A stretch of DNA of 63,892 bases, filler included, from Collodictyon triciliatum (taxonomy: Eukaryota): the NCBI GenBank assembly GCA_043381765.1. It is 9 parts of 9 records of this genome, joined end to end, with 100 filler letters (N's around TTAATTAATTAA, not from the genome) between each part and the next. Parts side by side here need not be neighbours in the genome. Positions count along the whole stretch, not along the records: positions 7,405 to 14,706 come from JBHJMP010003967.1; 8 more parts are not named here. One strand, 5' to 3'. The stretch's first letter is position 1; each line of letters starts with the position of its first letter. The translations under genes were made by a program, and so were the position numbers. This document shows positions 3,201-44,395 of this stretch, piece after piece. Under the pieces are notes generated by a model. The model searched no databases, was not told where the DNA came from, and saw nothing but the letters and a program-made list of their open reading frames with translations.

Positions 3201-5628
3201 TGTACTTTTTCTTCTTTTACTCATTTTTTTTACTTATAATTTTGATTTATATCCAGAAAACAAAGCCGCATAGATGAACTAGACCTTAAGGTTGGGTCAC
3301 AAACTCATGAGGTGGGCTTCAAATACTACTCATTACGTGTAAATAACCTTGATTTTTCTATCCTCTTTTCTTTTAGTTTTGTTCTTACTCATGGCTGTTT
3401 ATTTCTATTCATTTCTACTCACACAGATAAAAACGTTGGAAAAAGTTATATCTGACCTCGAACACAAACTCTTGCTGGCCCAAAATGAAATCGAGCATTT
3501 AAGGTCGGAGGCCCAATCGAGGAATCTAGCATCAGAATCTGAAACTGAAAAGGTGGTAGTATATTGATTGAAATCGAATCAAATGTAATTTTCTATCTGC
3601 TAAGTGGTAGAAATTTCGATTTGACATAAAGACGAGCAGTATTTTTTTTTAAAAAAAACTATTTATACTAGTTCATAAACTAAATTCTTAATATCATAAC
3701 GGGCGAAATAGAGACTTCGTGATTTGGCTGAAACCAACAAATTACTGCAACAAAAATGTACTACACTAGAGCATAACTTAGAGGCTACGAAGAGGGAGTT
3801 CCAAGGAATAATTGATGACATGAAAGAGGTTTATTTGATGCATTCGCTCGATTAAATTATTTTTTAAAAGAAAATCTGTAATGTCCACCATGTAGTTATC
3901 ATTTTTCTTCTAAAAAAAAGGAACTCAAAGAAGAGGCCAAAGAGAATGAGGATTTGGACGAACAAGTTACTGCTTGTTCCTCTTATATTCAGGAGCTCGA
4001 GCAGAAGATTTTATCGCTTGAGACTAAACTAAGTGGTCTAGAGAGCAAAAACGTCAACGATGAACAACAGAAAGAAGAAATGAAAACCCAACTCAAAAAG
4101 CTAATGGAAGTGAATGAGTCTCTGAAGAGGTCCACACAGAGCAAAGATGACCACATTCGTGATTTGGAAGAGACAATAAGGTCATTATCATCTGCTGGAA
4201 AAGATGTCGGTGTTGTTGAGGTGGTCTTTTTTCTTTTTCTTCTTTCAATCATATTGTAAAATTTCGGAATGGAACACTTTTCAAGCTCTTTACATGTAAA
4301 TGATTCAGATTAATTTAACAATTAAGATAAAATGCACCTGTGTAATCTCCATAAAATAAAATAAAATAAAAAGAGGAAACTCATCGAAGCGCAAGCAGAA
4401 AATCAGAGATTAAAGAAGGAAAAAGATACAAATTCGCAAGAACTAAGCACTCTTCGCAAAGTGATAGAAAATTATGAGAAAGAAACCGAGAAATCACTTG
4501 CTCATATCCAAAAATTGGAGAAAGCTGCATCGGATTTTGCTGAAAATATCGAAAAGCATCAGGAATCAGATCGCTTGAAGCAAGAAGTAATATCTTAATA
4601 GATTGTAATATTCTGTCAAAAAAGAATTGCATACATCTTCTTTACTGCTATTATCATATCTGTTTATCTGTTTATCTGTTTATCTGTTTATCTGTTTATC
4701 TGTTTATCTGTTTATCTGTTTATCTGTTTATCTGTTTATCTTTTTATCTCAAGAAAATATAATAACCATACGTAGGAAGTTGATCGAGTGAATGCAAGAG
4801 TCTCTGAACTTGAACTCGAAAACCGCGAAGCTGAGCGTCTTCGGGACAAGTATCACCAGGAGCTATCTCTATCGAAGCCCCAGATTGTATTAAACTACTT
4901 TTTAAAATTCACATTCGCTAAAAAAAAATATATATTAAATAGCTGTCTCTTGACTAAAGAAGGTATTTATTAAAAAAATTATACATAGAATACCCTTAAA
5001 GTAAGATGTAGTCAGTTGGAAGCTGAATTAGAAAAGATTGAAAAATCGTACATCGATAAAATTCAGACACTTCAAGAGCAGCAATCAAAGGTTATTTTTG
5101 TTATTTGTCTCGCTTTTAAAGTAAAGAAAAAGCTATCCTTTATTTTGTCTTAAAATCCGGGCAAGAATTCGTTTTAACCTATGCTATGGCTTAATACATC
5201 GCACATTTATTGAAAACGAAGGAAAAATGAGATTTTTATGTCACTCATCCCGCGTCATTAGCTTTGTTATAATCTTTCTCTTTACGATTGTGAGTCTGAA
5301 ACCAGCTTAGCAACTTATTTTTTATGTTCACAGGACCATGAAACCATCAAAGGATTGCAAGATATAAGTAACTCAAAAACGAAGGCGGTTGATGGCGAAG
5401 TTGAGAGGTTGGAACAAGAACTCATTCGAGCCCGAATCGGGTGGGCAGAATCTGAAGCTGAAAAGGTTTAATTAATTCCATATAACATCCCCTAACAAAA
5501 TCCTTCGGTTTGCATAAACTTTCGATGCCAAAACTGATCAATTGTAAACAAAGGACCAAATCCTGAAGCAAATGCACGACCTCAGGAGTTCTATTGTCAA
5601 CCATCGACAAACCCCAACAAAGAAGTAA
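299..5628 (+). CDS. NT-C2 (EEIG1/EHBP1-type N-terminal C2) domain plus long coiled-coil protein; multi-exon, 5' end missing
   Basis: GT-AG exons join to IVQVSSMPEVRGPVFIEVMRHSKSVTSKK / VLSTMDRRAVWDETLSLPLTLYQ / EGHKSSYQEKNVKIFLKDTNKTLGSTKINISSFAH (NT-C2 pattern WxExL...TLY...YQEK...LG...INIS). Many E/K/L/Q-rich coiled-coil exons follow; last exon DQILKQMHDLRSSIVNHRQTPTKK ends at TAA 5626-5628. Confidence 0.75.
4658..4740. repeat. (ATCTGTTT)n 8-mer tandem repeat, intronic
   Basis: Direct reading. Confidence 0.9.
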
Positions 5629-7304: not shown

Positions 7305-7404
7305 NNNNNNNNNNNNNNNNNNNNNNNNNNNNNNNNNNNNNNNNNNNNTTAATTAATTAANNNNNNNNNNNNNNNNNNNNNNNNNNNNNNNNNNNNNNNN
7401 NNNN
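7305..7404. other. Artificial contig spacer; identical spacers at 14707-14806, 22104-22203, 29500-29599, 36895-36994, 44296-44395, 51690-51789 and 59081-59180
   Basis: 44 N + TTAATTAATTAA (stops in all six frames) + 44 N. Confidence 0.99.
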
Positions 7405-7530
7405 CTCTTTTTCTTCTCTCTTTTTCTTCTCTCTTTTTCTTCTCTCTTTTTCTTCTCTCTTTTTCTTCTCTCTTTTTCTTCTCTCTTTTTCTTCTCTCTT
7501 TTTTCTTTTTTCGTTTCTCAATTACCACAG

Positions 7531-10500
7531 CTTGAAGAACTTTGCAAAAAGGCGCGGATTTGAAGTGGTTTTTATCGACCTTCGATGGGGCTTGACACGA
7601 TATGACACGTCTACTGGACTTGTAAATCATATATTTGCATGGAATAACAACCATTCTTTCATCGAGTTATTTCTTTGTTTCGCTCTTTCTTCAGTTCTTT
7701 CTTTCATTTTTTTTTATTTATTTATTTACTCCTGGGCATGAATATTTGTATTTCAATATTCTTGGTTGTTTCTGACGTTTGTCCTGTTTTCCCTTGGATT
7801 TCGTGTACAATTTTTTTATTTTCTGTCTATAAATATCGAAACGGTGCCCCGACACATTTACCATCCACTTTCCGTAAACCCCATCTGGTTTACGAATGCT
7901 GAAGCATGATAATATTATTTTTATATATAAAAAGCACAATCTGTCTCTCCAAGAAACTCATTATCTTTGGCTATCCTAAAGGTTGTTATTCGCTGCTTCG
8001 AGTCGCTCTCGAAGTGTCCCTATTTTTTGTGCATCCTCGGCTCAAGATACGGCTGGGTTCCTGACAGTGGCAATACGGAGCATTGGCATTCCTCTACAGA
8101 TTGGCGCTTTCCGTTTCTTCAGAAGATGCGGGGCTTAAGTGTGACAGAATATGAGGTTTGTTTCTATATATAAAAAGAATGAATCAGTATCAATATGCCT
8201 CATTCAAGAGATTGCAAGAATAGTTGGAGATATGAATATTTTTATTACTCGTCTTGAATCTGAAATCATTCACATCGTAAAAAGAATACTCGCATGCATA
8301 TGTCACTCAAGAGTGCTAGGCTCTATTGATGCTCTCTTTCTTTCCTTTATGGCCCGTAATAGTAAATTAAATCACCCATGAATGTCTAATTGGAATAGAT
8401 TATGTACGCTGCCATGATTCCAAAATGTGTAGCAAGCCGGGCGTTCTTTTTTTTCCGTGATGAGGACTATGCTATCAAGCACGTGGCCACTAGCGATTCT
8501 GAAATAGCTCTTTATCAGGCCGAGGACGAGATAAATGTTTGTTAATAACATCCATCTTGTCCATTTCATTCATAAAATTGAACACATTAAACATGGAATC
8601 CTATATTTCACCCTCCTTTTTTATGTATAGTAATTACGTCTTCTGCATTAGTAAAAATGCCTTTCTAAGCTAGTATTTATCCATTCGTATGTTTATAACT
8701 GGATCATGTTGCGAACTAGGCAATCCGCCAGAACCAACTGAAGGACAGAATCAGAGAAAGATTTTTGGCGCATACTTTTGAAGGACCAAGACATTTTTCC
8801 GATCTTGCCTGTGAAGCCTTGATGATGGCCTTCTCGCACGACTTTGAACCCCTATTAGTTCTGTATCTAATATATTTTTACGTTCGAAAATGGGATATTT
8901 AATCACATGTCACTTACTATTCTTCATTTGTGTTTATTAGTTTAATAGGAAAGAAAATCTTTCGGAAGCATGTTTATTTTTACTCATCGATTTTTATTCT
9001 GTTATTTTAGTTTTTATTTTATTTGTCTGGCATATATATATCTTTCATTTTTCCCTTTTTTTCTTTTTAGATTCAGGACCCGGAAGAGCTGAGCCATCAC
9101 CAGTTCATGAAACACCGCCTCACAGGCTTTGAAGGCCGTCGCGAAATTCTGTCCCAACTTGAAAGAGATGTTTTTCTACAACTGGAAAAGGACGACTGCC
9201 CCATCACTATTGTAGCTGCGCAATCTGGAATCGGAAAATCATCCTTAATGGCAGCTCTTGTTCGGCTTTTGGAAACAACAACAAAAGCATCAGACACGCT
9301 TGTCACCTTCCATTTTGTCGGATGCTCAGACTTAAGTTCATATGTTGAAAAGTAAAGCTGACTCTGTTTTTTCACATAGTTATAAAATCAACTTTTTCTT
9401 TTCATTTCTTTTTTTGAGTTTTTCGGTCCCATAACAACCCGCCCAGTCTGTGTCCACACCTTTATAAATTGTCCAACTGACGTTGAATTTTAATTATTTT
9501 TTTAAAATATTTAAAGCATCAGCCAAAGGTTCTGGAAAGCCGTCAAGCTGGACTCTGCTGATATCGAGAAACTAAAAGATTCCTCTGAAGAAAATCGTAA
9601 GATTAGTTTATGGGGTTTTAATGAGGGGGTTTTTTACAGAGGTTTATAGTGTGACAAAAAAAAAAAGCACCCATTGGAAGAATACGCGACATAAGTACGA
9701 CTTATTCAATCTAGGGTTGAAATCGAAAAAAGGAATCGAATCCTTGATGGTTCATATTTCGAAACAATCGTAAGAGTTATTTTGAATTGTGTATGAAGAA
9801 ATGTCATTTGGATGTGCTGCTCAATCTGTTGTTCTGTGATTTTCATATATTCACACTTACCTTACATGATTTGGCCACTATTATTATTCAATTATTTATT
9901 TTCTTCCGATTTATGAATCAGAGAGAAGAAGTACATTTTTGTAATTGACGCTGTTAATCAACTCTTGAATTCGGATGAGTTTCCTCAAGTACATCAATTA
10001 CACTGGCTCCCAAAAACTACTCCAAAAGGTGTTTGCATCGTCGCGTCTACAGTTGACACACACGATTCCTGTCACGTAATGGCTTTGTCAAACTACGTAC
10101 CCATCTTTATTTTTTTTTCTCGCTGAGTATGTAGATAGCCTTTTTCCTTTCTCCTTTTTCCTTTCTCCTTTTTCCTTTCTCCTTTTTCCTTTCTCCTTTT
10201 TCCTTTCTCCTTTTTCCTTTCTCCTTTTTCCTTTCTCCTTTTTACTTTTTACTTTTTCCTTTTTCTTATTTGGAATTGTGCACTAGTGGGCTAGGGTTTC
10301 AGGCATCACTCCAATACCTGTAAGCCGGTTGACAGACCAGGAGATAGAAGACTCAATTCACTCTTTCCTCGCACGCTACGACAAAAAATTGACGACGAGC
10401 CAGATTCGAATGATTTTAACGGACCAAAGAGATACAGGTCCCCTTTTTTAAATATTCTAGGCAATATTTTGTCGAAATTGCCTACATTTTTTTAATTTAT

Positions 10501-13500
10501 GTTTGGAAAAAAGAAACACGCCCGAATGACAACCAATATATTCCAAAAGGCCATCCTCTCTATCTGCGAATCTTATTGGATGAACTTCGTCTGTTTGGAA
10601 TCTTTGAAAAGCTTGACCAGGAAATTCAGACTCTTTTGGACATGGACGGGGTGATCAACTTGTACAATCTTATATTGTACCGCTGGGAGTCAAAATATGG
10701 TTAAAATTATATATTATAATATGATGCGATAGAATACAAGACCATTTTATGACATCCACTTTAATTATATTTTCGCAAGTTGGATTCATGCTGAGAATCC
10801 TGTCTTATGTAGGAGTTGACCTTGCTCGAATATCTACTACAGTCCTGAGCCTTTCAAGAATAGGACTGTCAGAGAACGAACTGGATGAATACATGAAATG
10901 GAGGCTTCAGGAAAAATTTGACTTTGCTGATTGGTATAATATTTCGAGCGTGTTGTATCATCTTAAAATACATTTGGCATCGCATCAGATATGAATTTTT
11001 CCATTTGATGTCTTTATACATTCAGGAAGTCTTTTTTATTCACCTTGCTGGATTTTCTCTACGTGAGAAATGGGAGGTAAGGCAATTCAATCAAAAAAAT
11101 CAAATCAAAGTGAAAATTGATATATCCATAGGTCTTAAATAGCAAAGTTTCACACTCTACCTAAAAAACCACTTTCATGTATAGTGATAATGTAGTAGTA
11201 ATAAGAATAGTAATAATGGTAGTAAAAAAAAAAAAAACGCACAAGGTATGCATTCTTCCATCTTTTGCTAAAAGAATCTGTGGAGCACCGATATATGAAA
11301 GGGGAGAATGTCGCTTTGGAATACGCAGCGTACGGTTCCTGGCTAAACGAAAAAGCGAAAACGCATGATCTTCCAAGCGACGAAGTAGCTGAAGTGTGTC
11401 ATGCCTTTTTATCTGCTGCCGAGTACGAGAATCTATGGAAATTTATATCCCAATCGCAGGTTCTTTGACATGAATTCAAGAATCGATTGTGATCTATTAT
11501 AACATTTTTTTTGTTCAAATATTCATAGCAATACCCTTTCTTTTCTTTTATATGTTGATTATTTCTGTTCCCGGTATTTGAAGGTTGTTGATAAACTTCT
11601 TGGGACTCGATACAAATTTGAGTTTTTTCTTTATTGGCGTGAGTTGAGCAAAAAGGGTTTTAATGACAAGGAGACGTACGCAAGCCTAGTCAAGGTTTGT
11701 TGATATCAGCAAATATGAATTACATTTTGCGAGTGGAGCAGTCTGTTGTCTACATAATTGGTCTTTTGCATCACCGCAATCAATTTTTCACTCTGCGACT
11801 GTCCACAGGAGCATTGTGCAGTTGGACTTAGTTTGCTTGATTACTTTACGGAACTACAGCAAAATGACTTTCTGCTCCCAATCATAGAGGACCGTATCAA
11901 AACGTGCTCATCCGAAGGTTAATCTTATACATTTCTCTTTGGATTGGTTTTATCCATGTATTTGCTTGGAGATAAATCAGATTTGATCTTTGACAAACGT
12001 CGAACAGCTCTATACGAAAAGACATTATATCAGTATATGGGGTGCAAAAAATTAAATTTGAACTCTCGAATGACGTACAGATGAAAGGCACCATAACTAT
12101 TGCTTTTTGGGGCGAGTGACTAATCAGAAAGGAAGGTATATCAAAAACCTGCAGCTGTTTTTATTTGAAAATATAATTCCTTTCCTTTGTCACGTCTTGT
12201 ATCTCCTTTTTATTTACTTTTTTCGTTTGTTTTTGATTGTTTTTGATTTGGTTTGGTTCGGTTTGGTTTGGTTTGGTTTGGTTTGGTTTGGTTTGGTTTG
12301 GTTTGGTTTGGTTTGGTTTGGTTTGGTTTGGTTTGGTTTGGTTTGGTTTGGTTTGGTTTGGTTTGCAGGTATCTCGAGGCAATCCCCCACTTCGAAGAAT
12401 GTCTCAAGATGCGTTTAAAACTTTTTGGAGCGGAGAATCCATTCGTCGCAGAGTGCTATCGCTACATCGGCGATTCTAATTACTGGATGGGGAGGTATGA
12501 TAATAATGTCGAGCTCAATACATCTTCCCCTTTCTATTTCTTTCATTTGCGTGGCTTCATATCCTCTGATGGAAATAAAACAATTGTATAATTTAGAGAT
12601 GATTGTAATTTTTCCACGAATTCCAAGTCCCCAGGCAAAAGCTCAACTTTTCTCTATTCACATTAACACAGATACTCGGAAGCTTTGGTGTTCTATTTGA
12701 AAGATTTGGAAGTTTCTTCTAAAGTATTGGGCGACCACAAAGACACTGGAATTGCAAACAATAATGTCGGATGGGCCTACTTTTCGATGAAAAGGTTGTA
12801 TGGTGCATATCCCTCATGTGATTAAGAAACTCCACATAAAAAGAAAATCGGATACAGTTTCGATGAATATCACATCAAGCCTCATTAGTCTTCACTTCGC
12901 TCACTCTTTCCTCATATCGCTGTCGATCGAAGGTTTGATGAATCGCAGAAATACTTCCAGACTGGCCTTGACATTCAACTGAGAACGCTGGGCGAAACAC
13001 ATCCAGATACTGCATACTCTTACAACAGTCTGGGTGCTGTATTTGGCGCTATTAAAAAGTTTGTCTTTTCATTTGGCGTTGCTGTATCGAATTTTTATGC
13101 ATATATTCGCATGAGTATGCATGTCTGTTAGGGAAGAACAAAAAAAAAATAATCTTGCAAGATTTATTTCTCTCTTTTCTCTTATCATTTATAGACCGCT
13201 CTTTCAACAATAGCGCCATTTAATTATTACTATGCCCTCATCTGAATTTTTATTGAGTAATACTTACATTCTCTCATTTCGTGCGGTTAGATTCGAAGAT
13301 GCACTGGTATATTATGAGAAGTCTTTGAAAATCAGGCTCAAGATATTTGACGAAAACCATGCTGAAACTGCAACTCTATACAACAACGTAGGATGGGTAT
13401 ACAACTCCATGAAAAAGTACGGAACTGAACATATACTTGAATTTTTTTTTGTCAACATAATTACAGACACGAAGGGATAAAAAAAAAAACAGATAGATAG

Positions 13501-14414
13501 ATAGATGATTTCGCTTGTTGTATAGTTGGGCGCTCAGCTTTTACAAGCCTCTTAGAAAAATATATAATAGTCCTATCACGTTTGAAGATTTAATAAAGTT
13601 TCTTTTATTTTGTCTTAATAACTCAATAATACTTAAAGGTACGAACAGGCTATTCACTACTTTCAGAAATCGATGAAGATTCGCGTCCATTTGATTGGAG
13701 AAAATCACCCCGACACAGCTACGTGCTTGAACAACATCGGGATGGCCTTTTCAAGCCAGGAAAAGTATACCTTTCTCTTTTTAGCAGCGAAAAATTTTAA
13801 AAAAAGATTTGGTATTATTATATTTCATTAACTGGGTTTTGGCAAATATCTATGAAAAAGAATATCCCTATCAATATAAATATAATTTGATAATGGAGGA
13901 CTATTTGGGTTTTGGATTATGGATTTTGACTCTTACGTCTTAGGCATGAGGATGCATTGACCTATTACCGTCGCTCCCTAGAAATCCGCTCCAAAGTCCT
14001 TGGCACATCACACCCCAACACTCGCAAAACATTCGTCAACGTCTCAAATGCACTGATTGCTTTGCAAAGGTGTTTGTTTTTTTCTTTTTCGTGTATGTCT
14101 TTTTGTTTTTTGTCTTCACATTTGTGTGAGTCTATTCGAATCATCTGCACTTCGATAAGCCTCTATTGAATGCCATGTTTTTCGGCGTTGTTTTTATTTT
14201 ATTTATTTTATTTTTAATCATGTTTACAATTTAATCACATCACTAAACGTTGCACACGCACTTGATGGCGGCCGATTGACCCAAGGCACCACGATCTCAT
14301 CGACCATCTGATTAGCTTCGCGGCTGAACGCACTTCTGACCTCGGCAGCGAAAACCACGCCGAAGTGGCCGACCTTTTCAACCAAACCGGCTCAGCATAC
14401 TCGTCCTTGAACAG
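7531..14414 (+). CDS. DUF4062-NACHT-TPR STAND NTPase (NPHP3/TEP1-like, NLR-like); both ends truncated
   Basis: FIDLRWG, LGSRYGW and SVTEYE (DUF4062); Walker A AAQSGIGKS; FHFVG; Walker B FVIDAVNQL; LHWLP; GHPLYLRILLDELRLFG; then at least seven 41-43-aa kinesin-light-chain-type TPRs. The exon phases I checked are compatible. Confidence 0.85.
10139..10255. repeat. (CCTTTTTCCTTTCT)n 14-mer tandem repeat, intronic
   Basis: Direct reading. Confidence 0.85.
12247..12365. repeat. (TTTGG)n microsatellite abutting a 3' splice site
   Basis: Direct reading; ends at GCAG acceptor 12365-12368. Confidence 0.95.
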
Positions 14415-14806
14415 GTCGCTGTGTTTGTCCCGTCGCCACATCCTCACAAAAGCACAACACAAATCCATCAATCTCTTGTATCCTCTCATAGTTTATCATT
14501 CATACAAACAAAGCATGCAACAAATATATGTACTTGCATCTTGACTGCTTTTATAAGCCTCGCAAAGTGCATTAATTTACTGCCACAAACGCAGTGCTTC
14601 TCTTCTCTTCTCTTTTCTTTTTTTCTTTTTTTCTTTTTTTCTTTTTTTCTTTTTTTCTTTTTTTCTTTTTTTCTTTTTTTCTTTTTTTCTTTTTTTCTTT
14701 TTTTCTNNNNNNNNNNNNNNNNNNNNNNNNNNNNNNNNNNNNNNNNNNNNTTAATTAATTAANNNNNNNNNNNNNNNNNNNNNNNNNNNNNNNNNNNNNN
14801 NNNNNN

Positions 14807-17800
14807 CAAGCCGATGCGGGAAACAAAGAGAACCTTCATCGAGAGGGACACATACTCGACCTTCATTGTCTCTTTTCCATCAGACGAGGCTACTGTACAA
14901 TAAAAAAATCATTCAATAAAAGTTGCAATGTAATTACTTTTTTCCTTTTAATTTGGCGAAATATGTAATCAATACTCACCCCTCCTGTCAAACTTCAGTT
15001 GCCAGCGCTGTATAATGAGCATGTAAAGCTCAATGACACCATTGGTCGAAAGCATAGCAAACAGTTCATCATCGAGCTTCTCATTGACACCAAAGACCCT
15101 GACTTCATCCAGAATGATGCGGAGATAGAGCCAATGTCCTTTTAAAAATTCATATAATAAGTAACTAAATAAACTGTGAAAAACCTTATCAAACTAAATG
15201 GTCTTATTAAAAATGTCTCACCGGTATCTTCAAAGTCAGCCAGAATCATTCCAACTTGCTTTTCATTCAGGGTCTTGTCATAGCGGATGAGGAATGATTC
15301 GACACCATCCTTTATTTCGCCCTCGGTCAACTTGGTGACAGGAATCGGCTCCAGTCCACTTTGCTTGGCATACTTATTACAGATACATTAATTAACCTTC
15401 CACTCAAAATCGTTTTTAACCAAAATACAAATACATCCAAAATATAATATTAAATGATGAATACCGTGCAAGATTCATGGGTATGAATAGTCGACACAAC
15501 CACCGCAACATTAGCTGGTGTTTCCTTAGGCAACCAGGTCAGCAGATGCGGAGCTGACGTTCCTTGCGACGGGTGGATTTGGTTGATGGCATCGATGAGG
15601 AAGACAAACTTCTCATCTCTATACAAGATAAATCAATATCAATTATTTTTTATTCGATTCAAAGTATTTCAATTTGATTTTGATAGTTAAAATAGACAAA
15701 AAAATCGAAGTATTACTTGTTTTTCTCCTGAATCATTTTCAGCAAGCCCTGGAGTCCCTCTTTTTCGTATTCTGGTAACAAAATAGAAAAAAATACATGA
15801 TTGATTATACAACATTTAAATTAAATTAAAAAGATAAAAATATAATACTGTAATACCAGCTTCCTGCTTCTTTTCCCCGAAAAAGTTGGCAGAGTTTGTG
15901 ACCAAAGTCCAGAAGCGAATCGAAACACTAAAATAAACAAATGTTAAAAACCAAAATAAAATATCTTTACATCTATAAAAACAAAAAGAAAAAAATTACC
16001 TTTCAACGTAACTGCTGAGGTTGGTGCATCCGACAAAATGGAAAAAGACACGCAGCCCAGGATGCTTCAGCCCTTCGAGGTCTCTCGCTGTGGCGGCCAT
16101 GAGCGACGACTTTCCAATACCAGACTCGGCAGCAAGAACGATGATTTTGGATTTCTCCATGCTCAGCTGGTTCATGACCTGATGAAAATAATTTATTGAT
16201 AATAAAAGAAAAATCAAAGAATATTGTTGTCATTTTTAAATAATTGCTCTTCATTTCGTCTTACTTGCTCCGTGATTGTCTTGAGAAGCTCCTTTCTTCC
16301 ACAAAACCCAACCAATCGATGCATCTTGAACTGGTGTTGCGCTTGGTCTTCAGGGTCTCTCACCTATTTTATAATTATGTGAATGCCATGTTAATGAAAT
16401 ATATCTCACGAATCAATACCGAAACTTTTGCACTAATTAAAAATAAAAAATTATACAGTTTGATTCCCAAAGTCGTGCTCGATGGCGTAGGTGAGATGGT
16501 AAGTCACAAAGTCCGAATACTCTTTCGCTCCTTTGTAGATAACATGCCCGAACTTGGCCTTGACTTTTCCTTTGAGCTCCTCCTGCCTCTTACGCTAAAA
16601 AATACATTACAATATATGTTAAATAAATCAAATAATTCAATAAACGTAACATAATTACTCGAAAACGAAAACATAAGAAAATTTTATCAATTTTTACCGC
16701 CTCTTCGCTTTCAGCTTGGAACAGCTTTCTTTCTTCCTCATTCTTGGCATGTTGGACAGCATAATGCTCATCGCGAAGGTAAAAGAAGGCGCGGCTGCAT
16801 GCTGGTTTGTCAATCAGACAGGCATACTGAATCTGAATATATATTTTGATTTAGAATGATTTATTTAATTTTTATTATTCATGACGGATGATACATAAAA
16901 AAATTTAGGGATTTGGCTTCACCTCGTATTCAGTCACACTCAACCCAGGCATTTCGTCAATGAAAGGAAAGCGGCTATTGGTTTCACTGCGCCATTCCAC
17001 CCAAATATCCTTCATGGTGGCATCAGGCTTGGTATTCAGCAGCTCCTCGAGGCGGGCTTGTTTGTTCAGCTCCGTTTTGTTCTGGTCAGGAATCCAGCCG
17101 CAGCGCGCACCGAGAGAGCACACAAAATATGGACATTTTCCGATAGAGTCCAAACAGCGAATCACAACCTTTGAAATATAAATCAAAGTAAATTGAAGGT
17201 TATTATTATATAAAATGCTAAATATTCTAAAAAAATTATCAAAAAATAATGTTAATAATATTGTGATTACCCATCCCTCACTACTGTCCACAGAAGTCAG
17301 TCCCCAGCGCAAATCGATAAAGACAAGGTCCACTCCCAATGATTTCGCAAGCCTTTTTAGCCTGACATAAAGACAATTTTGTTAGTAAAATAAAATCATG
17401 AAATTATCATTCCTTGTTATAGATTTATTTTTTAATTTGTGTATTAAACTTACTCAGGGGCTCCATTCTTGAAAAACTCGTCTCTTTCTCGCTGCATGTC
17501 ATGGAAAGTGGAGGAAAGGAAAACACGGATGACACGCTCCTCAAAGAAAATGAGTGGCAATGGTGTCGATGTTACGTATTTTTGTGGAGCCGGATTCCAC
17601 TTCTTGTATTGCCTCTCTTTCAGGTCTTCACGAGCAAGATTCATCTGGTTTGAAAAGGACATTACATTTCACATATCGGAATGATTTTGGTCAAATTTAA
17701 CTATTTTAATTAATTATAAATTGCCTTGTCAAGAAGAATGCAAGTGCGGATGAGCACAACAGAGCCTTTGTCTTCCAGACCAAGACCTGCATCAATATAT

Positions 17801-18693
17801 AAATTTAATTCAGTTGATATGTTAATATAAAATAAATCAATAAAAAAAGATAAATATATAAATCAAATTTCAACCATGGAACGGAAACGGGGCCTTCGCT
17901 CTTTCGTAGAGCTTCTTGGCAATGTCGTACCTCTCGCGACATTTTTTCTACAATTTTTAACGATGGGAAATTATATTTTGGAATGGTTCAAAATTAGAAA
18001 TCATTGAATATGAAAGATTAAAAGGAAGTGTTTTGTTACCCCAAGATTTCCCAAATGGCCAACACTTTGTCCAATAAGATACCGAAGCATTTCATTGAGC
18101 AAATCTGTAAGAATATTTATATGTCAATCACCCATACAAACTAAATATATGATATATGAAAAATTCCAAAATCAGTTCCCTTTAAAACAAATAAAGCAAA
18201 CCAGCGTAATGGGCCTGAGAAGCAACAGCCTCATCACGCACATTCAATTTCAGAAACCAATCAACAATGAGTTTTTGATTCTCGTCAACAAGAGCCTCCT
18301 CCTCAATAGCTTTGTCACTGATTTTAAAAAAGGGATTAAATACCAATAAATGAAAGAAATAAACAATAAAAATCGTGAATATCATAAATAAATCATACGC
18401 AAACAAGCGCGAATGGTAGCTTCCCAAGGACTTTCCGGTGACCGTCTCAATCAGCATGGCCAAAAAGAACCCGTCCATTAAGTCATCGCGGATGTTCTTC
18501 GACTTGAGATCGATTTTTCCCAGGTGGTGGTTTGCCCATTCGAGGACAGCCTGCGCTCAGTAGTTGGCGTAAACATTTCAACTCTTTCTAATATATAAAT
18601 CTATTTATTGATGAATATGTATGTATTTGTGCAGACTTCGTCAATGGTGACAACGCTGACGTTGGCCTCGGTGCTTGTTTCGGTTGCAGACAT
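14807..18693 (-). CDS. CH-domain-DUF4062-NACHT STAND NTPase, paralog of 7531-14414; 3' end truncated
   Basis: ATG at 18693; AVLEWANHHL..I..IRDDLMDGFFLAMLIETVTGK...LVDENQKLI (calponin homology); IRVFLSSTFHDMQRERD, FIDLRWG and SVTEYE; Walker A AAESGIGKS; Walker B FLIDAINQI; HWLYLRIILDEVRVFG. Confidence 0.85.
15646..15664 (-). mobile_element. Third copy of the CTTTGAATCGAATAAA(A)n micro-element
   Basis: Exact core match within an intron of the CH-NACHT gene; TSD degraded. Confidence 0.55.
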
Positions 18694-19794: not shown

Positions 19795-20300
19795 TCAGGG
19801 ACGGATTATGAAAGGGACGTGGAATCCCTGCAGGCTTATTTTCTTTTCTGGCACTTTGGGTAGTTCTGATGCCGGGAACTTGACCAGCGCGTCATTAGTC
19901 CAGATACCGTCCACAGCTTCGTAGTAAAAAATGGTAGGCGAAAATGTTGCTTTGCAGACCTCTTCAATGTCTGCCTTGGTGAAGCCTGGGGGGATATCGC
20001 CGATGATAGCGGAGTGGAGAGGTGGCCTCTCTTGGTATGGGCGGAAAGAGCGGCCAAGCAGTTTAAACTGTCCTGCTTTGGCAAACTCTGCGGCGTTTTG
20101 TTGGTGCGGGAAGGCTACTGTGTATCCTTGGGGTTGATCGTACAGTTGCATGATCACGTTCTCCTCGTAGCACTTGAGTTGTTTAAGGACTTGGGCGAGT
20201 TCTTTCTTCGCTTGGTTGCGGGCTTCGTGGTTCTGGGGCAGTTTGTGCTTACCTCGAAGGCGGACGTAGCAGCCGGCTCCGTACAGGTTCTGCTCCTGGG
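19795..20300 (-). mobile_element. Non-LTR retrotransposon ORF1 (gag/RRM-like) fragment
   Basis: Intronless, higher GC; HSAIIGDIPPGFTKADIEE...GIWTNDALVKF..LPKVPEKKISLQGFHVPFIIRP resembles LINE ORF1 RRM modules. No reverse transcriptase downstream. Confidence 0.4.
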
Positions 20301-21132
20301 CTCTCTTTGATCGGCGGATCGGTGTGGCCGAGGGGCCTTGGTCGAGTTGTGTCCTCGATTCTCGTGCGTTCGAATGTGTTTTTCTCAAGCTTGCGCTTTC
20401 GACCTCCACACTCGAGTCGGGCTCTATGAGTTGTTCCCCACGAGATCGAAGAGATCGAACGAGGAGGGAAATGTTGGCTGGAAGCATGGAGATGTTTTAT
20501 CCGATGAAATTCAGCGAGTGGAGCTGGATATATGCCTCGTTTGGTGTCCATCCCGGCTTCATGATTTCACCTTCCTGTTTTTGTTTTGTATTTTGAGCAA
20601 CTTTTTTCTTTTATTTCATTTTTTAATTTGCTTACGGGGTCGTAGAGCTGCAGAGCGCGGATGTATCTGTAGTCTTTGTGTGATGTGTCATTGCACAGTG
20701 GAAGAGCTGTGATGTCACGCGGGGCCTTTATGTTAATTCTTTCACTGAGCTCGAACGAGAGCTTCTCCCGATTTGTGAGCGCTGTGATTTGTGGTGGGAG
20801 CTCCTCCATCTGTTTGTATGATTGTCAGTCACTTTATCTTTCAACATAAACAAAAAAAAAAGATAGAATATCAAATAAATAAAAACAAACCGGATTGCCA
20901 TCAACCCAAAGCCATGTGAGGCCAGTCAAACGCGATATTTGTGGAGGCAGTGATGACAGCATATTGTCAGGAAGACGAAAATCTTCGAGACCAGTCAACA
21001 AGAAAATACCTCGAGGCACATATGTCAGTTTTTTGGATCTGAGACTAGACTTGTGGAGCCTTTTAAAGAGGCAACGCTGGGTTCCACGGCGATTTTCTGG
21101 AGCTCTTCTAAAAGTTCAGCCTTGTCGGCCAT
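20300..21132 (-). pseudogene. Disrupted spliced leucine-rich-repeat gene (3' boundary approximate)
   Basis: ATG at 21132 (MADKAELL...). A 1-nt frameshift near 21045 restores TSL(D)LRSKKLTYVPRGIFLLTGLEDFRLPDNMLSSLPPQISRLTGLTWLWVDGNP. GT-AG introns at 20810-20890 and 20575-20635; in-frame TAA at 20497-20499 within the LRR-like LHSLNFIG*NISMLPANISLL. Confidence 0.7.
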
Positions 21133-21594
21133 CGCGGCAGAAGTGGGGCGGGGACGGTTTGGACGGGTTGTGGGGGCTGTGTGGGCGAGTGAAATGAGTT
21201 GTGCGTCAGTGCATTGCATAGTGCTTCATTTGTTTTGTGACTGCACTTGACAAGTCACACAGAGGAGCGTTGCTAGGGTGAGCGGTGCGGTTTTGCGCAC
21301 AGAGAACAGAACGTGCATTGCGAATGAACGACGCATGACATGGTAGCAAGAAATAAGTGCGCAATGCAGCGGCGATTATGACAGGACAATGCTTAAATAT
21401 CTCGCAAAGGCCGGCGAATCTTCCGTCCGAATAAATATGCGATTGACTTAACGTATGGGTGGACGGATTGGGCTGTGTGTCGCTCGTGTGTGGCGTGTGG
21501 CTCGTGTGGTGACTTAAAGGTAGAACATTCGGCCATTTGGTTTTGCACATTAAAGCCACGTTTCCATTTTGGTTTTGCACAAAAAAACACACGT

Positions 21595-22103
21595 ATGGCA
21601 ACCAAGCCTCAACTTGACGACGAGAATGGTCTACGAGCACTACCGGACGCGACCGGTGGAGCGAGCAGCGGGATGCAGGAGAAGGAAATCTACCCGGCCG
21701 GCTGTGTGGTGCGCCTGGTGGGCGAGTACACTGAGACACTGACGCACGCCACACGCCTGCGTCTGCTGGAGCAGCTGTGCGAAGTCCACCGCACCCACGA
21801 GTGCGCCACGGAGGGTGTTGTGCTGCTGGTGTAAGACCTGTCGCGCGGCCCTCACATCCAAATTGGGACGCTGCGCCACAACAAAGGCGAAGCCACACCA
21901 CAGCTCGCGCCGATTCCCGAGTCAGCGCACACACCAACCCAGGCAAAACCCCGCCAACCCCAAAGACTCCACAAGAGGCTCCCCGTCCACTGCGGACAAA
22001 GACCCAAACGTGCCCTCCAACTCGGCAGGCACACTCACAGGCAAAGCCGCACCCAACGCCGCCCCACAGCGGACACAAACAAAGCCCGCCGTCACCCAAG
22101 CGA
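21595..22103 (+). mobile_element. Second ORF1-like copy (disrupted or spliced), running into the contig end
   Basis: MATKPQ...EKEIYPAGCVVRLVGEY...HATR aligns with EQNLYGAGCYVRLRGKH...HEAR of the 19795-20487 ORF; a Cys cluster and a P/S/T-rich tail follow in another frame. Confidence 0.35.
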
Positions 22104-22203
22104 NNNNNNNNNNNNNNNNNNNNNNNNNNNNNNNNNNNNNNNNNNNNTTAATTAATTAANNNNNNNNNNNNNNNNNNNNNNNNNNNNNNNNNNNNNNNNN
22201 NNN

Positions 22204-44116: not shown

Positions 44117-44395
44117 TGGTATGATAGTGGCAATGCTTAAAATGTAGGGTGAAAGAAAGAAAAAAGGAAAAAAGAAAAAAAGAAAAAGAGGAAAAAAAGG
44201 AAAAAAAGAAAAAAAGAAAAAAGAAAAAAGAAAAAAGAAAAAAGAAAAAAGAAAAAAGAAAAAAGAAAAAAGAAAAAAGAAAAAAAAAAAAAGAANNNNN
44301 NNNNNNNNNNNNNNNNNNNNNNNNNNNNNNNNNNNNNNNTTAATTAATTAANNNNNNNNNNNNNNNNNNNNNNNNNNNNNNNNNNNNNNNNNNNN

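Follow-up and report, generated by a model that had tools for sequence, protein, structure and literature searches.

Does a run of symmetric repeat exons in a protist gene serve as a set of exchangeable cassettes, or is it the frozen trace of how a repeat array was once built? The question is raised by a locus in a 63,892-nucleotide stretch of DNA (the window) from Collodictyon triciliatum (GenBank assembly GCA_043381765.1). The gene lies on the plus strand of the contig piece at 7405..14706 (JBHJMP010003967.1) and comprises a DUF4062 domain, a NACHT-type NTPase and a C-terminal array of tetratricopeptide repeats (TPRs). An initial annotation had taken it for part of a diversifying, NLR-like receptor system; the NLR-like architecture held, and the shuffling was not supported, given collinearity with the Diphylleia rotans protein P0131, introns free of pseudo-exons and an absence of unit-skipping isoforms in D. 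rotans. We read the gene, with a probability of roughly 0.65, as a conserved member of a multigene family of TeTIR/NIR-NACHT-TPR STAND proteins whose exon layout is inherited and whose repeat units are fixed in number and order.

The array is encoded by seven exons at 12369..12494 (126 nt), 12672..12794 (123 nt), 12933..13058 (126 nt), 13291..13416 (126 nt), 13639..13764 (126 nt), 13944..14069 (126 nt) and 14286..14414 (129 nt), all on the plus strand, with borders and lengths as first annotated. AG precedes and GT follows every one of them (7/7), and splicing in phase 2 (2-2 throughout) yields 293 residues with zero stops. The codon split after its second base at the six internal joints encodes R, R, K, K, K and R in order, which bears out the claim of a shared K/R codon; exonic bases at the junctions (slash, splice point) are AAG/G, GAG/A, AAG/G, AAA/A, AAA/G, AAA/G and AAG/G. 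A half-unit exon (12081..12135, plus strand; from the alignment to P0131) supplies helix A of the first TPR and ends in the first phase-2 K/R junction, so that eight phase-2 donors in a K/R codon follow one another. A (GGTTT)n microsatellite (12250..12365, read from the sequence) takes up most of the intron that precedes TPR exon 1. Exon 7 has a donor; the exon after 14414 (~50 C-terminal residues in P0131) is off the contig.

This one-unit-per-exon, phase-2 pattern is real and far from chance. With each phase at one third, 8/8 in phase 2 has a probability of ~1.5e-4, and the 14 upstream junctions, placed by homology, are mixed: phases 0, 1 and 2 occur about 7, 4 and 3 times, and the junction near 9641/9924 is uncertain.

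Taken singly, 6/7 TPR exons matched Pfam TPR_12 (E 3.9e-3 to 3.3e-9), and TPR_10 matched as well; exon 7 alone, a degenerate unit, had no Pfam match. Residue 1 of the exon falls on position 18 of the 42-position TPR_10 model, so an exon runs from helix B of one repeat through the linker into helix A of the one after. Each exon is one 42-residue period and not one structural repeat, which refines the phrase "one TPR per exon". Repeat-model matches and the 42-residue period together identify the units as kinesin-light-chain-type TPRs. P0131 scores 200 bits on TPR_12, and units in the relatives are spaced at 42 or 41 residues. Unit 2 is 41 residues long in P0131, as it is in the window gene.

Upstream exon borders were obtained by a homology-guided junction search against P0131. 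The first exon on the contig (7532..7621, plus strand; 5' border approximate) encodes the part of the DUF4062/TeTIR domain with the RWG loop, at 71% identity to P0131 residues 51-81; the first ~50 protein residues are off the contig. The next (7982..8155, plus strand; Pfam DUF4062 and the solved chain 11gz_A) carries the Cys, the arginine of GSRYGW and the glutamate motif SVTEYE. Two plus-strand exons (8399-8536 and 8720-8857; homology to P0131) encode the last part of TeTIR and the stretch that links it to the NTPase. The first NACHT exon (9077..9351, plus strand; acceptor alternatively at 9071) contains Walker A (GIGKS) and gave sub-threshold matches to NACHT, NPHP3_N and nSTAND1. Further plus-strand NTPase and helical-domain exons lie at 9517-~9641 (uncertain), ~9924-10075 (Walker B, VIDAVNQL), 10287-10437, 10550-10699, 10813-10933, 11026-11076, 11246-11459, 11584-11694 and 11809-11917, with mixed intron phases. 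Coiled-coil open reading frames at 4989-5471 were considered as the N-terminus of the gene and rejected: they lie on another contig piece, P0131 has no such extension, and tblastn with P0001 (a second D. rotans protein) at E<1 placed nothing before 7529.

Both domains named upstream of the repeats by the initial annotation were recovered. Pfam DUF4062 scored 27.4 bits on the window exon region 7931-8173 (cut-off, 24.7), and the TeTIR chain of TEP1 (11gz_A) matched the window exon at E 0.008 and the N-terminus of P0131 at E 1.1e-17. The latter alignment brings together all the positions mutated in TEP1 (FxSS..R..ER, RWG, Cys, the Arg of GSRYG and the Glu of SVTExE); their mutagenesis is described in bioRxiv 10.64898/2026.09.21.753143, as far as its accessible text goes. 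RWG, Cys, GSRYGW and SVTEYE are unchanged between the window exons and P0131, and FxSS..R..ER is off the window contig and present in P0131. Family model and solved structure were thus both matched, and the residues that TEP1 requires for NAD+ hydrolysis (NADase activity) are kept. The NTPase has the hallmarks of the NACHT type in the window itself, Walker A GIGKS and the Walker B Asp of VIDAVNQL. Pfam NACHT scored 34.7 bits on P0131 (cut-off, 26.7) and fell into sub-threshold pieces of 16 and 12 bits on single window exons, as expected when introns divide a domain. In the consensus of nine D. rotans paralogs the Walker B Asp is followed by N-Q and not by acidic residues. P0131 exceeds the Pfam cut-offs for DUF4062, NACHT, NPHP3_N, nSTAND1 and TPR_12. 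From these sequence matches, the gene is classed as a DUF4062 (TeTIR/NIR, TIR-like NADase)-NACHT-TPR STAND with NLR-like architecture. The description of DUF4062 as TIR-like, given at the outset, agrees with the accessible text of three 2026 preprints (bioRxiv 10.64898/2026.05.01.722283, 10.64898/2026.09.04.749371 and 10.64898/2026.09.21.753143), which rename the domain NIR or TeTIR, report it as a TIR-like NADase of bacterial anti-phage systems and human TEP1, and place it before NACHT in human NWD1, NWD2, TEP1, TTC41 and NPHP3 and widely in EukProt NLR-like proteins.

A search with the P-loop exon returned one protein, P0001, at 57% identity, and a wider search with P0001 gave 410 matches, of which the best 120 are the basis for the relatives described here. 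The first eleven were D. rotans transcriptome proteins (EukProt), in keeping with the protist host claimed initially; the other named relatives among the matches listed had bacterial or metagenome-style names and 27-33% identity. To judge from these best hits, the source organism is a relative of D. rotans and distinct from it. Every window-gene exon has a match in P0131 (1081 aa), beginning at residue 51 of that protein; identity is 50-88%, with 36% and 30% in the helical region. P0131 is the ortholog-like counterpart of the gene. D. rotans expresses at least 11 distinct family members. A long N-terminal extension (coiled coil), a CH domain or an RRM may precede DUF4062 in them, and WD40 repeats follow the TPRs in P0011, which is N-terminally incomplete.

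The common order of DUF4062, NACHT and TPRs raises the alternative that the gene is an ortholog of NPHP3, that is, a ciliary scaffold and not a receptor with an enzymatic output. Pfam NPHP3_N did score 28.1 on P0131 (cut-off, 24.8), and conservation between the two species would suit a housekeeping role. The repeats do not follow, since TPR_NPHP3 reached 75.9 bits against a cut-off of 100. NPHP3 has an N-terminal coiled-coil extension. DUF4062 of P0131 starts at residue 26, with neither a coiled coil nor a long extension before it. The catalytic glutamate motif is kept in the window gene, whereas NPHP3 is reported to lack that glutamate (bioRxiv 10.64898/2026.09.21.753143, accessible text). 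No source-named animal NPHP3 occurred among the best 120 of the 410 matches; the "nephrocystin-3" labels found there are JGI names on metagenome proteins of 27-32% identity. Nor is the single-copy NPHP3 ortholog that the initial annotation had set against its own proposal what was found: besides the subthreshold TPR_NPHP3 score, the family counts at least 11 genes in D. rotans, and the window holds a second copy. The paralog P0001/P0121 (1331 aa), with a Met-Gly start and an extension of ~390 residues before DUF4062, may fit NPHP3 better, as the animal protein is myristoylated, has a coiled coil and is ~1330 aa long; the paralog is a candidate for the lineage's true NPHP3 counterpart. For the window gene we regard NPHP3 orthology as very improbable. 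The closest named animal protein is instead TTC41, a lead from a language-model look-alike cluster ("tetratricopeptide repeat protein 41-like", score 0.95) and not an orthology test. Because NPHP3 is reported without the glutamate that the window gene keeps, the gene seems to resemble TTC41-type members more than NPHP3.

If the TPR exons were shuffled, the relation of each unit to its counterparts in other genes should be scrambled. The spliced TPR region aligned with P0131 gap-free and collinearly through units 1-6, shared unit 2 length included, with a single one-residue gap in unit 7; 151/251 residues of units 1-6 are identical (60%). When 51 units were compared, drawn from the window gene and from eight paralogs of D. 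rotans, the best match of window units 1-6 was in every case the same-index unit of P0131 (6/6; 67, 64, 69, 67, 52 and 40%). The best other unit reached 36-48%, and the best unit within the same gene 31-45%. Window unit 7 was closest to P0131 unit 5 (36%), the set holding no seventh P0131 unit.

The per-exon tree that the initial annotation had proposed as a test of shuffling spoke against it. A maximum-likelihood tree of 41 units (those of P0127 and P0011 excluded) paired window units T1-T5 with P0131 u1-u5 (support 98/35, 100/97, 99/97, 99/86 and 86/83). T6 groups with u6, amid terminal units from other paralogs (95/82). The first units of four paralog lineages form one clade (96/93), the last units also cluster across paralogs, and P0121 u1-u4 pair with P0008 u1-u4. 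The tree is built from 42 columns, and many of its forks are unresolved, including those of the middle units of other paralogs.

Remnants of exon turnover were likewise absent. The first three contig pieces were translated into six-frame fragments and scanned with a unit profile, which found only the seven exons, the next hit (independent E-value 0.15) lying on another piece; the profile was built with the seven window units included, and their own scores are therefore circular. The introns of the window gene contain no pseudo-exons and show no similarity to one another, and no two of its TPR exons are near-identical (top exon-exon DNA match, 71% over 52 nt). At the 17 positions that vary most between units, many of them in the helix-A half of the exon, the window gene and P0131 have the same residue in 57/102 cases; unit-specific residues are thus kept between the two species, as judged from the aligned proteins. 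Conservation of the TPRs against P0131 (60%) is not below that of the NTPase exons (50-73%).

The isoform comparison covered 24 D. rotans proteins in seven clusters; 17 of these proteins are not the longest form. None of the 17 alternative isoforms has an internal deletion or insertion of a unit relative to the longest. C-terminal truncation or divergence occurs in 14/17, and the break coincides exactly with a TPR unit boundary in nine of these 14, across five genes, the other five breaks lying outside the TPR array. Six of the nine end at the junction residue, as a retained intron starting GTAA or GTGA would give, and two continue for 8-22 residues from a T-initial codon; the ninth is considered below. 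Of the five breaks outside the array, those of P0122, P0132 and P0136 were placed at intron positions of the window gene by reading the aligned sequences, not by direct mapping. The breaks indicate that the same intron positions probably exist throughout the D. rotans family, and a layout shared in this way would predate the paralogs.

Such breaks could also be read as regulation: intron retention or alternative terminal exons would give a ladder of receptors with 0, 1, 2, 3 or more TPR units, the short forms acting as de-repressed or decoy NADase-armed STANDs, with skipping perhaps only on infection. If true, a deep-branching protist lineage would tune an NLR-like receptor at the level of splicing; we consider this reading highly doubtful. 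Beyond the GT, donors of the window TPR exons are variable (GTATGA, GTTGTA, GTTTGT, GTACGG, GTATAC, GTGTTT and GTCGCT; 12495-14420), unlike the GTAA or GTGA donors suggested by the D. rotans isoform ends, and the splice-site consensus may not be the same in both organisms.

These five tests point the same way, and cassette shuffling is not supported at this locus. A diversifying innate-immune receptor with shuffled TPR-exon cassettes on a DUF4062-NACHT chassis would draw on the symmetric exons in multiples of three, on a multicopy family with varied N-terminal domains (coiled coil, CH, RRM), WD40 in one member and varying unit number, on an effector with an immune-type NADase fold, on the 126-nt TPR exons that are the hallmark of Ectocarpus, and on an isoform (P0010) that appears to switch exon at a unit boundary. 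It is opposed by the unit-for-unit collinearity with P0131 down to the 41-residue unit 2, by identities of only 31-45% between units of the gene, by introns with neither pseudo-exons nor mutual similarity (those of Ectocarpus hold inactivated exons), by the 0/17 isoform count and by unit-specific residues conserved between two species. We give it a slim chance. In formal terms the reading frame would survive the skipping or duplication of any TPR exon, and there is no sign of such use here.

How the layout arose is a separate matter. Introns might have been gained in parallel at the same proto-splice site (AG/G or AA/G in the K/R codon) of a pre-existing, intron-less TPR array of bacterial type. 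The relatives outside D. rotans, which among the matches listed bear bacterial or metagenome-style names or none, would agree with such a source. So would the metagenome matches: P0131 alone gave 88 pattern matches, 0 of them confirmed, and a smaller alignment (A3) gave 79 loci at 23-32% identity, in which the match spans of the examples inspected fit intron-less, presumably prokaryotic genes (L001: 2772 nt for 951 residues). The junction bases, too, resemble the proto-splice-site consensus. Eight independent gains at an identical codon position and phase are, however, unparsimonious, and the clustering of first and last units across paralogs fits an array formed once; comparable phase-2 LRR exon arrays in Tetrahymena were explained by clonal exon expansion (PMC6564038, accessible text). 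Parallel gain seems unlikely to us.

The preferred reading, a conserved family member with an inherited layout, would run as follows. The protein would consist of a TeTIR/NIR domain, a NACHT NTPase with helical domains and seven to eight kinesin-light-chain-type TPR units of 42 residues. An intron-flanked 126-nt unit would have undergone tandem duplication, or each new repeat would have brought a copy of the intron position with it, before the split of the paralogs and of the two species; the units would then have diverged, and their number and order become fixed. The best reading of the symmetric layout is that it preserves, in frozen form, the building of the array by tandem duplication. By analogy with the family, from which the switch mechanism is inferred, the TPR array would keep the NTPase inactive in the absence of its ligand, which would be conserved between species; once the array had bound this ligand, nucleotide-dependent oligomerisation would gather the TeTIR domains, and the clustered domains would hydrolyse NAD+, an output that may take the form of cell death, dormancy or signalling. 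A role in immunity would be plausible. As far as protein comparison can suggest, the conservation of the sensor face favours a ligand that is itself conserved over an arms race at this locus.

Several observations weigh against this reading. The remaining boundary-break isoform, P0010, has an altered junction residue and a different tail, which looks like an alternative exon used at a unit boundary. TPR unit number among the paralogs ranges from ~5 to 8, and moderately similar non-adjacent units occur in some of them (e.g. P0125 u1/u5, 55%; P0135 u3/u5, 52%); units have therefore been gained and lost in the past of the family. The C-terminal units are less conserved (T5, 52%; T6, 40%), and T7 aligns weakly. 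The comparison was with one other species, and selection was judged from protein identity alone. Human NWD1, NWD2 and NPHP3 had no NADase activity in vitro according to the accessible text of the 2026 preprints.

The second family member in the window (DUF4062 plus NACHT; 14807..18547, minus strand) lies on another contig piece. It is closest to P0002 (CH domain, DUF4062, NACHT), with 72% identity in one NACHT exon and an upstream stretch that matches the CH-domain region of P0002. RWG and SVTEYE are kept, an extra intron lies inside the P-loop exon relative to the plus-strand gene, and the sequence ends with the contig before any TPR. A tail-to-tail pair of the two genes was considered and rejected, as an artificial linker joins their separate contig pieces.

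The window is made of nine contig pieces joined artificially, ~7.3 kb each with the last one shorter. Eight identical linkers, each of 44 N, TTAATTAATTAA and 44 N, lie at 7305-7404, 14707-14806, 22104-22203, 29500-29599, 36895-36994, 44296-44395, 51690-51789 and 59081-59180; gene order across them is consequently without meaning. The list of N runs puts a linker on either side of the piece with the TPR gene, and the gene is truncated at both ends because that piece spans only 7405-14706. Microsatellites stand at the start and end of the piece, and several of the pieces end in them. Composition (~36% G+C) and GT-AG introns are eukaryotic, and Rfam gave nothing at gathering score over the whole window. 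Stretches at 20001-22000 and 56001-58000 stand out in composition, with ~52% G+C; on either strand they contain long frames free of stops, with a high content of Pro, Ala and Arg, and they may be a repeat or foreign DNA. An open frame on the minus strand (59856-60431) looks SET-domain-like by eye (motif of histone-lysine methyltransferase type, ending NHSCE). On the plus strand, a stop-free frame of 680 residues with many hydrophobic stretches (33723-35765) may be an intron-less gene for a multi-pass membrane protein.

DUF4062-NACHT NLR-like proteins in eukaryotes, and repeat-per-exon arrays in Ectocarpus and Tetrahymena, are already in print. We found no prior description of a gene structure of this kind in diphylleids in the literature searched, a search that did not extend to the supplementary tables of the Ectocarpus and NIR papers. 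The locus adds a genomic example, from a poorly sampled lineage near Diphylleia, of a class linked to NAD+-degrading immunity only in 2026, and shows that DUF4062/TeTIR-NACHT-TPR genes can carry the 126-nt repeat-exon layout read in brown algae as a diversity generator. That layout coexists here with a strict unit order between species, and symmetric repeat-exon structure alone is therefore not evidence of ongoing shuffling. The main value of the gene is as a counter-example, a cassette-like exon structure without detectable cassette behaviour, and as a caution for similar calls.

Among known systems, the domain order is closest to that of TTC41, NWD1/2, TEP1, NPHP3 and the EukProt NLR-like proteins, in which DUF4062 directly precedes NACHT, with C-terminal TPRs in TTC41 and NPHP3; residues mutated for NADase activity in TEP1 are aligned and kept in P0131. 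Gene structure is not discussed in the accessible text of the 2026 preprints on TeTIR/NIR-NACHT proteins, and the window gene comes from a diphylleid-like protist. Bacterial DUF4062-STAND-TPR defence proteins (e.g. the DUF4062-bearing Avs2, bioRxiv 10.64898/2026.09.04.749371, accessible text) have the same three-part architecture but apparently intron-less genes, and PADLOC v2.0.0 gave a generic TPR match at most (that match alone for P0131 and P0125, none for P0121).

For the exon layout, the parallel with Ectocarpus drawn by the initial annotation is sound: the NB-ARC-TPR genes of that alga (Zambounis et al. 2012, PMC3341825, accessible text) form a multicopy family of STAND NTPases with C-terminal TPRs from repetitive 126-nt exons, each one 42-residue period. 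They differ in having NB-ARC, with no N-terminal effector reported there, in place of NACHT and TeTIR/NIR, and in their inactivated intron exons and a shuffling that obscures paralogy. The window gene shares the 42-residue period per exon; it has no pseudo-exons, and positional homology of its units is not scrambled, their order being kept between species. The 90-bp LRR (leucine-rich repeat) exon arrays of Tetrahymena (PMC6564038, accessible text), with >96% phase-2 introns and clonal exon expansion, likewise have one repeat per exon, an extreme phase-2 bias and a junction residue common to adjoining exons. Those arrays consist of thousands of young, near-identical LRR exons, whereas the TPR exons described here are old and diverged.

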